Origin: Microbotryum violaceum
Taxonomy: Eukaryota
Assembly (NCBI GenBank): GCA_001244265.2
Contig: CDLV01000017.1
Span: 496,001-560,000 of the forward strand
Direction: 5' to 3'
Length of the DNA: 64,000 bases
Shown: in pieces, positions 51,852-54,800 of the stretch
Layout of the letters: each line of letters opens with the position of its first letter
Position numbering within the stretch: the first letter of the stretch is position 1
Notes under the pieces: model-generated
The model's database searches: none
Told to the model about the DNA's origin: nothing
What the model saw: only the letters and a program-made list of their open reading frames with translations
Made by a program: the position numbers and the translations under genes

Positions 51852-54800
51852 TGTAAGGCCCGTGCGCCTGGGCCTTATGAGAAGGGAGCGCGCACCTGGA
51901 CACTCTTAGTCTCCCCTCAGCGACTAACACGAGTGTCCAGGTGAGCCTATGGTGGATCAGAAGTCATAGTCATTGTAGCGACTAACACGAGTGTCCAGGT
52001 GAGCCTATGGTGGATCAGAAGTCATAGTCATTGTAGCAAATAACACGAGTGTCCAGTGTTAATTCCACATACTTTGGTCCTGTGATACTCTCGTCGTCGC
52101 TCTCTGGTGTACACTCCTACGGGGTGTATTACACTTTTTTTTTCACATCGGTCAAAGACGCACGCTGCCACGTGCGCCAGCGACACCTTTGCGGAACGAA
52201 CGAACGAACAAGAACGAACGAACGACGACGACCATGGCGCGTGCCAAGAAGGCGACAGCCCAACCACCGCCGGCACTCCAACCTGACGAACCTGGCTCCT
52301 CAGATGACGAAGAGGAAACCGTGACGATGCCGAAGGGTCTAAAGCTCAATGCGCCCAAGCTAGCGAGCGACACCACTCTCGCACTCGCCTCAGTCCGAGC
52401 CTACCTCAATGACATGGACAACCTTTTTACGCAATACAAAGTCACCGGCATGCGTTTCAAGGTCATGTTCATCACACACCATATCGAACAGGAGTGGCTC
52501 AAGGACTGGTGCGGGTCAGCGACGGAGGATTGCACATGGGACGAGTTCAAGGTTGCATTCCTACGTAAGGCTCTACCTTTGGACTTTGCGTACGCCACAG
52601 AGAAGGCCATTCGACACAGCAAACAACGTCTAACGGATTACACCTTGTGGGCTTCGGGACTTCGGGCCTCACAGCTCCAGCTCGGGCAGGCCGCGTTCAG
52701 TGACACCAGCTTCATCAAGGTCCTACTGTTCAACATGGATCCTCAACTCAGCGTCATCCTACGTCAAGACGACCTCTTGCTGAACACCGGTATGCACACA
52801 GACAACTTGGATTACGTTGTCGCTTCGAAGACCGCACTCCCCAAGCCCAAGACGATATTGTACGAGGCCGTCGAGCGACTGGCACGATCGAAATGGAACA
52901 TGATCACGGCACTTCGCGGTGTAGCAGCTCCCCGAACGCACAACTCGACGATGGCGACGAGAACTAGCTCATACCGACCCCCTGCGACCACGTCGACGGG
53001 CGGCCGACGTTTACCGGCTAAACTGACGGACGCGATGAAGGATTACCTCTCGCTGAAGGAGGGCTGCTTCAGCTGCCGACAAATACACACGGATCATCGA
53101 TCAAAGGACTGTACCGCGGAATGGCAGAAGGCGCCGGATGTTCCGGAGGGCTGGACCGAGTTTGAGAAAAGGAAGGCGAGCGCTGCGAAGAACGATACGC
53201 TCCACCAAATGGCCGAACAGTCGGAGGACGACTTATCAACGGACGAAGAAAACGAGTACGCCCCTCAGTTCATCTCGACTATCCCCATCACCCTACACAA
53301 TGGCAAGGGTTCACAGACGTTGCACGCACTTGCTGACTCCGGGGCCTCTTCCTCCTTCATTGTAGATAAGGTGGTTGAGAAACTGGGGTTAGCTGTGCAT
53401 CGTCTCCCTGTCCCTACAATGGTCAAAACTGCAATTAAAGGTCAAAACCGCGCGTTTCATGTTACCTCATACGTAAAAATCCCGATCGCGCTCGAGAACG
53501 GAACTTGGGAAGCGGGGATACGATTCTGAAGGTGGCCAAGCTGCAGGAACCCCTGGAGGTGGTGCTGGGTTTCAACTTTCTTGCAAAGCATAAGTTCAAC
53601 ATCGACTTTGCAAGACACGAGATCCTGGTTCCACACCCAAGCATGCCCAACGTGATGATTGACCTCCTCGCGCCGGTCTTCGGACCTCAGTCACAGCGCG
53701 CCGTGCCAAGGAGCCCCAAACGAAGTGATAAAGCTCGGATCAACTGGGGCGCGGTGATTGCCTATATCGACGGAGTACAGCAGAAATAATCGGAGTTGGC
53801 GGAGTTGAGGGCACGAGAAGCGAGGCTGAGGGTGGAATTTGCGGACAGATTTCCCGGCGACATACCCCCAGTATCAATGTACGAGTCCCCAGTCTGACAT
53901 CGCATCGAGCTGAAGCCGGGAGCAAAGAAGCCGAATTTGAAGGGTTACCGGGCACCACACCATTACCGCGCGCCGTGGAAACGCTTGATCGACCAGCACG
54001 TGACCGCCGGCCGCCTCCGCAAATCGTCATCGGAGTTCGCCTCCCCGGCGTTTGTCATTCCAAAGAAGGGCATGGACAAGGACCCATCCATCCAGCCACG
54101 AATGGTCTGCGACTATTGAGTGCTCAATGAAGGAACCATTCGCGACCGCACACCGTTACCGCTTCCGGATGAGATTCTGTCGATCTGTTCGAAGGCACGG
54201 TTTTGGGGGAAGATTGACATGACGAACTCCTTCTTCCAAACCAAAATGGCGGAGGAGGACATCCCGAAGACGGCAGTGATAACGCCGTGGGGACTTTTTG
54301 AGTGGACAGTAATGCCGATGGGCCTCTGCAACGCACCGGCAACGCATCAACACCGAGTCAACGAGGCGCTCGGCGACCTTATTGGGAACGTGTGCTTTGT
54401 GTACCTCGATGACATCACAATTTTCGCTGACACATTGGAGGAACACGAACGACGAGTACGATTGGTCTTGGACACGTTGAGAAGAGCCAATCTGTACGTG
54501 TCCCCAAAGAAGACGGAACTGTTCGCTGCCAAGTGCTTCTTCCTTGGCCACCAGATCACGCGCGAAGGCATCAAGGTGGATCCCAACAAAGTGCAGCGAA
54601 TCCAACAGGCCCCGACCGACAACAGTGAGGCAACTGCGGGGATTTCTGGGTCTGGTTCAGTATCTCAGGAAGTTCATTGACAAGCTGGCGGACTTGACGG
54701 CGATCTTAGTCCCACTCACACGGAAGGGGGCACATGTCAACGACGGCTGGACGGGGGAACACAACACGGCGTTCGAGGCAATCAAGGCTCTTGTGGGGAG

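Follow-up and report, generated by a model that had tools for sequence, protein, structure and literature searches.

A probable facultative intron at the gag/protease junction of Ty3/Gypsy chromoviruses in Microbotryum violaceum, with a predicted Gag-only product

Only in a handful of Copia elements is it settled how a retrotransposon with long terminal repeats (LTRs) and a single open reading frame (ORF) obtains its excess of capsid protein. Among Ty3/Gypsy elements, textbooks explain the Gag excess by frameshifting or, in the case of Tf1, by protein turnover, and in Ogre, a Ty3/Gypsy element of plants, the removal of an intron joins frames so that pol can be made. Here we consider two related Ty3/Gypsy chromoviruses, copy A and copy B, that lie in a 64,000-nucleotide (nt) stretch of the Microbotryum violaceum genome (assembly GCA_001244265.2, contig CDLV01000017.1, positions 496,001 to 560,000 of the forward strand; this whole stretch is referred to as the window, and positions are counted from its first letter). 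Both copies carry the signals of a spliceosomal intron within the coding sequence at the boundary of gag and protease, and its removal would end translation at the last Gag codon. We propose that this intron is facultative and that it probably allows one transcript to serve both as the message for the polyprotein and as a message for Gag.

Splicing that yields a Gag-only message is described, in the available portions of the literature, for Drosophila copia, barley BARE1, Arabidopsis EVD and other Copia elements (PMC3735527; PMC5580714), and the sunflower Tyran and Varan elements and the shGAG elements of triticale are Copia as well. The closest analogue is BARE1, which according to the available sections of Chang et al. 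(2013; PMC3735527) has a single gag-pol ORF and a 104-nt facultative intron at the gag/protease boundary that shifts the frame; its spliced RNA is nearly full length, encodes Gag only and coexists with the unspliced form. The differences are that BARE1 is a Copia element of a plant whereas the elements described here are Ty3/Gypsy chromoviruses of a basidiomycete, that its stop codon comes three residues on whereas here it is immediate (GA/A TAA, the slash marking the junction) and the intron holds the active-site Asp of protease, and that its splicing was demonstrated by reverse-transcription PCR and sequencing whereas our evidence comes from contigs of sequencing runs whose kind is guessed. 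EVD and the other shGAG-producing Copia elements of Arabidopsis, as portrayed in the accessible text of Oberlin et al. (2017; PMC5580714), resemble the present case in that splicing is centred on protease, gives a Gag-dedicated mRNA and uses sites conserved within families, but their introns are about three times the host length and are coupled to premature termination, whereas the Microbotryum intron is of host size and no short transcript is evident. Drosophila copia also makes a Gag-only RNA of 2 kb from a single-ORF element by alternative splicing, but the part removed is about 2950 nt and comprises nearly all of pol, and copia again is a Copia element (PMC3735527, available sections). Ogre, as papers that cite it describe it, belongs to Gypsy and likewise has genomic RNA with a working spliceosomal intron; it splices between ORFs, and its logic appears to be the opposite one, as intron removal here ends translation before pol.

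The initial annotation of this DNA, a model's note made without database searches, named three elements that use splicing for Gag, all of them Copia (Drosophila copia, BARE-1 and EVD), and knew of no description for the present group. This agrees with the available parts of Oberlin et al. (2017), Chang et al. (2013) and a 2025 review, which list only Copia elements and Ogre; the review names EVD and Ogre as intron-bearing plant elements and EVD and BARE1 as elements with spliced Gag isoforms. Arabidopsis Gypsy elements show no such conserved splicing as far as the accessible text of Oberlin et al. (2017; PMC5580714) states. A search of the open full-text literature, with subscription journals and supplements outside its scope, found no description of a Gag-only splice in a fungal or a Ty3/Gypsy element, and Supplemental Fig. 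S2B of Oberlin et al. (2017), which concerns Gypsy splicing, may bear on novelty. The available parts of papers on transposable elements of Ectocarpus, on Tcn1-like chromoviruses, on the elements of S. osmophilus and fission yeast, and on those of Microbotryum (Gypsy) make no mention of such an intron.

Both elements are Ty3/Gypsy chromoviruses (Metaviridae) by gene order and by the presence of a Chromo domain, and the label of chromovirus that they had been given at the outset therefore stands. The Pfam domains RVP_2, RVT_1, RT_RNaseH, Integrase_H2C2 and rve follow one another in this order in copies A and B, that is, protease (PR), reverse transcriptase (RT), RNase H (RH) and integrase (INT), and the Chromo domain is C-terminal. 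In copy B, a Pfam search of positions 63302-63772 identified SH3_Tf2-1 at the integrase C-terminus (PF24626, E 1.9e-10) and Chromo at approximately 63551-63694 (PF00385, E 2.7e-14), and a chromodomain motif can likewise be read in the sequence of the C-terminus of copy A. The translated Gag of copy B contains a zinc knuckle and an acidic tail, while its match to Ty3_capsid is weak (E 0.066) and under Pfam's cutoff. In the window copies, and likewise in most listed relatives, the knuckle is spaced CX2CX6HX4C instead of the usual CX2CX4HX4C. Gag and protease occupy one frame, as had been claimed, with ORFs of 52189..53529 in copy A and 59211..60890 in copy B that run through the junction and include RVP_2 in both cases.

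At the end of the acidic tail the two copies share the donor cga/GTACGC, with GT at 53256 in copy A and 60233 in copy B. The branch motif GCTGAC (53332-53337 and 60309-60314) places the presumed branch A 29 nt before the intron's 3' end and overlaps the Ala-Asp codons of the protease motif ALADSG in both copies; 19 of the 25 bases preceding the YAG are pyrimidines, and the acceptor reads TAG/ATAA in copy A and CAG/ATAA in copy B (AG ending at 53365 and 60342, respectively). The intron is 110 nt long in both, which leaves a remainder of 2 on division by three, and its removal in silico from either copy gives a Gag of 341 amino acids that ends in ..STDEENE, with the stop at codon 342. Reading and recomputation thus reproduced for both copies what the initial annotation had reported of the GT and AG coordinates, the length, the donor, branch, pyrimidine tract and acceptors, and the outcome of splicing, GAA TAA behind a 341-residue Gag. 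The intron extends from the last Gag codon to 11 codons past the active-site Asp and so takes in the N-terminus of protease with the D of DSG (60312-60314 in copy B). Because it holds this catalytic residue, spliced RNA would be without active protease even by read-through. Folding of 240-nt segments around the intron gave z = 0.27 for copy B and -0.74 for copy A, with no sign of a regulatory fold.

The junction expected from these signals was found in contigs assembled from sequencing runs. Of 24 runs listed for positions 52001-62000, 20 cover a part of them; none is recorded as RNA and 4 were guessed to be RNA. The contigs of three runs guessed to be RNA (X16, X18 and X19) and of one DNA run (X1) were aligned to 58893-63772 at 80% likeness. 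Contigs of X18 (depth 9.55) and X19 (depth 197.2) join position 60232 directly to 60343, skipping exactly the 110 nt with GT..AG ends and with 0 letters fitting both sides, and this is the very join that had been predicted, ..GAAAACGA/ATAAGG.., in runs whose RNA status is a guess. A second joint, which runs from 60229 to 60343 and has 3 intervening letters, occurs in X19 and X18 and represents the 110-nt skip of a diverged copy. In X19 it sits on a 2552-nt contig (depth 73.3) with pieces from gag into RT, which extends upstream of the joint as diverged pieces and differs from copy B at 43 of 211, 52 of 235 and 110 of 534 positions, as compared with 30, 53 and 89 differences between copies A and B over the same spans. 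Record 17 of X18 ends exactly at 60232, which is to be expected at a branch between two forms. Neither joint is present in X1 or X16, and record 2 of X1 passes straight through the site. X18 and X19 also contain contigs that retain the intron; their depths at 60317 are 479.9 versus 197.2 for the joint in X19 and 9.82 versus 9.55 in X18, figures that are a poor measure of a ratio. No short Gag transcript is evident, in that contig depth is not higher over gag. Elsewhere in gag, a contig of X19 (depth 96.5) skips 108 nt at 59895-60004 with GT..CA ends and 2 other letters between, which is probably a difference in length between copies in the Ser/Thr-rich linker and no splice.

That X18 and X19 are RNA is a guess, and it leaves room for the reading that the joined contigs are genomic DNA copies lacking the 110 bp, either retro-copies of spliced RNA or deletions, so that no present-day splicing would be seen. 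The organism label of the two runs (D), which is not that of the joint-free runs (A and C), is compatible with this. However, deletions do not choose exact GT..AG ends with 0 letters fitting both sides, and do so in two diverged copies, while retro-copies of a spliced RNA would themselves need splicing, and both window copies retain the intron. The depth profile also argues for RNA, with which uneven coverage fits: along the element X19 varies 16-fold, from 545 to 8746, with peaks at the LTR/leader boundary (bin 59056-59218) and near the 3' end of the aligned stretch, whereas X1 is much flatter (67-298) with its maximum over the LTR, and X16 is similar to X1. We consider an origin of the joints in genomic DNA very unlikely, and the preferred reading is that they record splicing of the element's transcript.

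Synonymous conservation was assessed between copies A and B as the number of identical codons among the codons for identical residues. Against an overall background of 182/290, identity is 15/17 in the codons flanking the donor, 3/9 in the middle of the intron and 14/16 from the branch to the acceptor, and it is 25/28 in the first 96 nt of exon 2 (60345-60440 in copy B and 53368-53463 in copy A). The claim that the ends of the intron are conserved while the middle has diverged is consistent with these values, in windows that were chosen post hoc; the P values for the conservation windows (0.016, 0.023 and 0.0007) are indicative only, as the windows were set after inspection of the profile. The conserved stretch of about 100 nt in exon 2 could be a splicing enhancer.

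The motifs might also be mere by-products of coding (Glu-Tyr at the donor, then Ala-Asp-Ser-Gly, Ser-Ser-Ser-Phe-Ile and Asp-Lys) and the joints artefacts of assembly. Loose combinations of splice motifs are indeed common: a scan for GTRNGY and for CTRAY 8-45 nt before YAG, with lengths of 45-300 nt, gave 3 and 6 candidates in copies A and B, respectively, but about 9 per copy in triplet shuffles, and it was for this reason rejected as a test of significance; moreover, branch and tract lie on conserved protease codons. The junction intron is the sole candidate of the scan that stands at a matching place in copies A and B. An artefact of a de Bruijn assembly, however, requires a shared 30-mer at both sides whereas the joint has 0 shared letters, the exact predicted junction occurs in two runs and in two diverged copies, and a distant relative, L001, repeats the GT, branch, AG and stop with different residues at donor and acceptor. 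We therefore disfavour coincidence and hold it to be very improbable.

L001 is a 2435-bp metagenome contig with 50% identity to a Sporobolomyces johnsonii model, and its Gag is about 30% identical to that of the window copies. Its donor, TG/GTGCGC at 2122, lies at the end of an acidic Gag tail, GCTGAC falls on the codons for L-A-D-S-G with the branch A at 2193 (31 nt before the intron's 3' end), the 25 bases preceding the acceptor include 19 pyrimidines, and a CAG ends at 2224, which makes an intron of 103 nt. Removal of this intron gives GAC TG/A, a stop across the junction at codon 347, and a Gag of 346 residues. In the 1260 bases that hold most of gag and the start of protease, the junction intron is the sole candidate of the loose scan. 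The residues at the splice sites differ from those of the window copies, P-I-L-Q-R as against F-I-A-D-K at the acceptor and W-C as against E-Y at the donor, while GT, branch, AG and stop are kept; the initial annotation had suggested looking for the signals in further relatives, and donor, branch, acceptor and stop all recur in this one. The splice sites are thus kept at the DNA level in copy A, copy B and L001. L001 was the one locus among 159 matched stretches returned by scan A2 of metagenome_contigs; the same scan gave 0 of 149 in viral_contigs and 0 of 230 in genome_contigs, and scan A3 gave 0 of 74 in viral_contigs.

Related proteins extend the comparison further. While a word search with Gag found 8 database relatives, all of them Microbotryum gene models, a profile-free search with a Gag of 340 residues against 1.84 billion representatives gave 69 matches at E <= 1e-3, many of which share one layout, a CX2CX6HX4C knuckle, some 50-90 residues, an acidic tail of Ser, Thr, Asp and Glu, and then protease. 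Ten proteins stop within the acidic tail (P0017, P0079, P0025, P0032, P0035, P0083, P0043, P0067, P0082 and P0070), the named sources being Sporobolomyces koalae, Rhodosporidiobolus odoratus, Rhodotorula, Stereum hirsutum and Neolentinus lepideus, and the relatives, Gag-only and read-through forms taken together, span Microbotryomycetes and Agaricomycetes. One single cluster at 90% identity holds both forms, P0043 (334 residues, ending in ..STDSESEE) and the read-through P0080 (536 residues). Among 31 read-through sequences sorted by eye (30 proteins and the L001 ORF), the tail is followed directly by Cys (16 sequences), Tyr (14) or Ser (1), and at the next position the 30 sequences with Tyr or Cys have Ala (14), Val (8), Glu (7) or Thr (1). 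Although chemically unlike, Tyr and Cys both have T-R-Y codons, which could be the footprint of a donor: with G-N-N codons for Ala, Val or Glu and after a codon-final G, the result is GTRYGN, a 5' splice site. The pattern of Tyr or Cys followed by Ala, Val or Glu (29/31) is a lead, drawn from sequences that are kin and with a boundary that was placed knowing the target. The count excludes P0020, P0021, P0050, P0056 and P0075, whose models leave the frame or skip the start of protease after the tail. In P0020, P0021, P0050 and P0056 the models jump from the acidic tail to ..EPYD(V/I)ILG.. of protease, or leave the frame; it looks as though the prediction software chose a donor at this very position and forced an in-frame acceptor. 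Signals at the gag/protease boundary are conserved at three depths of divergence.

An intact single gag-pol ORF exists in this family, even though copy B as it stands in the window is broken in four places, namely at a G-run that lacks one base (60829-60835) and at the TGA codons of 62099, 63188 and 63299. The contigs of the runs carry the extra G behind 60832 (in all of the depth in X1 and X16) and have C at 62099, 63188 and 63299 in all or nearly all of the depth in all four runs; the four breaks are absent from these contigs and so belong to the window copy alone. All three TGA codons represent C-to-T changes at CpG (contexts GCT-TGA, GCC-TGA and GAT-TGA), and most of the listed differences, read from window to contig, are T>C or A>G. 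Copy B of the window hence looks mildly hypermutated, in the manner of repeat-induced point mutation, and a C-to-T bias at CpG fits the hypermutation that is described for Microbotryum elements in the available literature.

The host is an anther-smut fungus, and the G+C content of the window, about 55%, agrees with the 55.4% published for M. lychnidis-dioicae. By the standards of the host, the intron of the element is ordinary in size and signals. In the window's DEAD-box helicase gene, five introns read from the continuity of its ORF measure 70-113 nt (Table 1) and have branch-like motifs that resemble CTGAC, CTGAT and CTAAT. With C at +6, in contrast to the T of 4 of the 5 helicase donors, the donor of the element is slightly suboptimal, and such a weak +6 position would suit partial splicing.

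The same suboptimal donor could also speak for real splicing with a different role, either as a mark for silencing by the host (RNA interference coupled to the spliceosome, or decay prompted by a long 3' untranslated region (UTR)) or as noise that lowers the amount of Pol. The 3' UTR of the spliced RNA would indeed be very long, and the available parts of PMC7175516 describe a cryptic intron in the S. pombe element Tf2, where splicing is needed for Tf2 small interfering RNA, and the SCANR pathway of Cryptococcus, which targets poorly spliced transposon RNAs; the core machinery of RNA interference is present in Microbotryum, according to the accessible literature. Those systems resemble the present one in that a fungal single-ORF Gypsy element (Tf2) or a transposon transcript contains an inefficiently spliced intron, but the introns concerned are described as triggers of RNA interference, lie away from the Gag end and create no Gag-terminating stop, and no link to the supply of Gag is reported in those parts of the source (PMC7175516). 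A harmful donor could moreover be removed by one synonymous change (GAG to GAA), yet it has been retained both in copies that are 79% alike and in L001, whose Gag shares about 30% identity, and in every case a stop coincides with the junction or follows it directly; the relatives also include Gag-only proteins that terminate at the same point. Conservation within the element points to a benefit to the element. A role in host defense or as noise is in our judgment unlikely as the explanation, although it and the supply of Gag do not exclude each other.

We therefore favor the supply of Gag, and regard the following scheme as probable. A single LTR-driven transcript of a single-ORF Microbotryum chromovirus would contain one facultative spliceosomal intron of 110 nt and would have two fates. 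If the intron is kept, the RNA would encode the Gag-PR-RT-RH-INT polyprotein and could be packaged as the genome; if it is removed, the frame would shift, TAA would stand right after the completed Glu codon, and the RNA, still nearly full length, would encode Gag only. Partial splicing would in this way yield more Gag than Pol from one promoter, as it does in copia, BARE1 and EVD. The splicing interpretation of the initial annotation is supported by the conserved signals and by a precise GT..AG junction in contigs of RNA-like runs, whereas translation of the spliced RNA, a reliance of the element on it for excess Gag, and a Gag:Pol ratio set by the splice are inferred.

Several points weigh against this scheme. 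The short side of the 60232-60343 joint has 20 letters and that of the second joint 26, which is below the 31-letter rule for bridging; the 20 letters equal the distance to a branch in the graph that is seen in X16 too (record 11 starts at 60213). X18 and X19, which come from a single study, are only guessed to be RNA, their organism label is D whereas the comparison runs X1 and X16 have labels A and C, and X16, though also guessed to be RNA, is without the joint and has a DNA-like profile. Contig depth is a poor measure for the share of the spliced form. The conservation windows were picked post hoc, and the stretch of 25/28 extends about 100 nt beyond the acceptor, where high synonymous conservation could reflect a conversion tract; coding constraint explains a part of the conservation as well, as branch and tract sit on strongly constrained protease codons. 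No Gag gene model among the 8 from Microbotryum has its end at ..DEENE, and in other fungi ordinary stop codons could account for the Gag-only proteins. Finally, with a 3' UTR of about 3.4 kb, the spliced RNA might be degraded instead of translated.

The two copies of the family lie in the final 12 kb of the window, and their coordinates are collected in Table 1. The LTRs of copy B have TG..CA ends by inspection of the sequence. Two solo LTRs of the same family are found at 48079-48301 (99.1% identity to the 3' LTR of copy B) and at 10040-10267 (about 84-85% identity to the copy B LTRs), and the 5' LTR of copy A contains a tandem duplication of 51919-51998 and 51977-52056 (97.5% identity, unit of about 58 bp). 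The leader of copy B (59116-59210) shows no obvious primer binding site of the tRNA type after the 5' LTR, which is followed by C, a T-run and then CACAAAGG; self-priming as in Tf1 is conceivable for this family. Host genes near the elements include a Sec1-family gene (14861-17932, minus strand), an eIF4G homologue (19539-24143, plus strand) in one open frame of 1534 codons, and the DEAD-box helicase (40262-42840, plus strand) with at least 5 short introns. A polyprotein fragment of the Ty1/Copia type with the Pfam domains Pol_BBD, gag_pre-integrs and rve occupies positions 157-2250 on the minus strand.

Table 1. Positions of the chromovirus features and of the helicase introns used for comparison, in window coordinates
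Feature	Position	Strand	Size	Remarks
Copy B, full-length Ty3/Gypsy chromovirus	58893..63995	+	5103 bp	LTR pair from self-BLAST; Pfam domains
Copy B target duplication	58888-58892 and 63996-64000		5 bp	GATGT; sequence inspection
Copy B 5' LTR	58893..59115	+	223 bp	98.7% identity to 63773-63995 (self-BLAST)
Copy B 3' LTR	63773..63995	+	223 bp	self-BLAST
Copy B exon 1 (gag)	59211..60232	+		final codon split, GA/ before donor
Copy B facultative intron (proposed)	60233..60342	+	110 nt	sequence measurement and contig joint
Copy B start of exon 2	60343..60346	+		base 60343 completes GA/A (Glu); TAA 60344-60346
Copy B remaining pol (intron kept)	60343..63772	+		PR, RT, RNase H, integrase, Tf2-type SH3, chromodomain; Pfam and frames
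Copy A, same family, more decayed	51851..57004	+		79.4% identity to copy B across 5059 bp
Copy A LTRs	51851-52133 and 56780-57004	+		5' LTR with internal duplication of ~58 bp
Copy A exon 1 (gag)	52234..53255	+		ATG at 52234; final codon split, GA/
Copy A facultative intron (proposed)	53256..53365	+	110 nt	homologous to copy B intron
Copy A start of exon 2	53366..53369	+		A completes GA/A; TAA 53367-53369
Helicase intron	41501-41571		71 nt	donor GTCGGT, acceptor CAG
Helicase intron	41750-41819		70 nt	donor GTGCGT, acceptor TAG
Helicase intron	42130-42211		82 nt	donor GTACGT, acceptor CAG
Helicase intron	42320-42432		113 nt	donor GTGAGG, acceptor CAG
Helicase intron	42617-42713		97 nt	donor GTCGGT, acceptor CAG

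These elements have thus probably arrived at the same solution as BARE1, though in a different superfamily and kingdom, and a wide clade of basidiomycete chromoviruses may have it in common. Judging from the relatives compared above, we tentatively suggest, as a possibility that we hold with less than even confidence, that the Gag-terminating intron may be an old, clade-wide trait of basidiomycete single-ORF chromoviruses, from the yeasts and smuts of the Microbotryomycetes to the Agaricomycetes, with all of its signals within coding sequence, the donor in the codons for Tyr or Cys and Ala, Val or Glu and the branch in the Ala-Asp codons of protease. It would then be the first case of splicing for Gag outside Ty1/Copia and in fungi, with an origin independent of those in plants and flies, and the solution would have evolved at least twice. 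If this is true, an acidic Gag tail, G/GTRYG, a branch on the A-D codons of protease and a stop at the acceptor would serve as a search signature with which Gag-only isoforms can be found in fungi, and many of the 'orphan' gene models of Gag size in basidiomycete annotations would be explained. Gypsy-like elements have expanded massively in some Microbotryum lineages, according to PMC5381629, and a splice of this kind would offer a handle on transposon control in Microbotryum.

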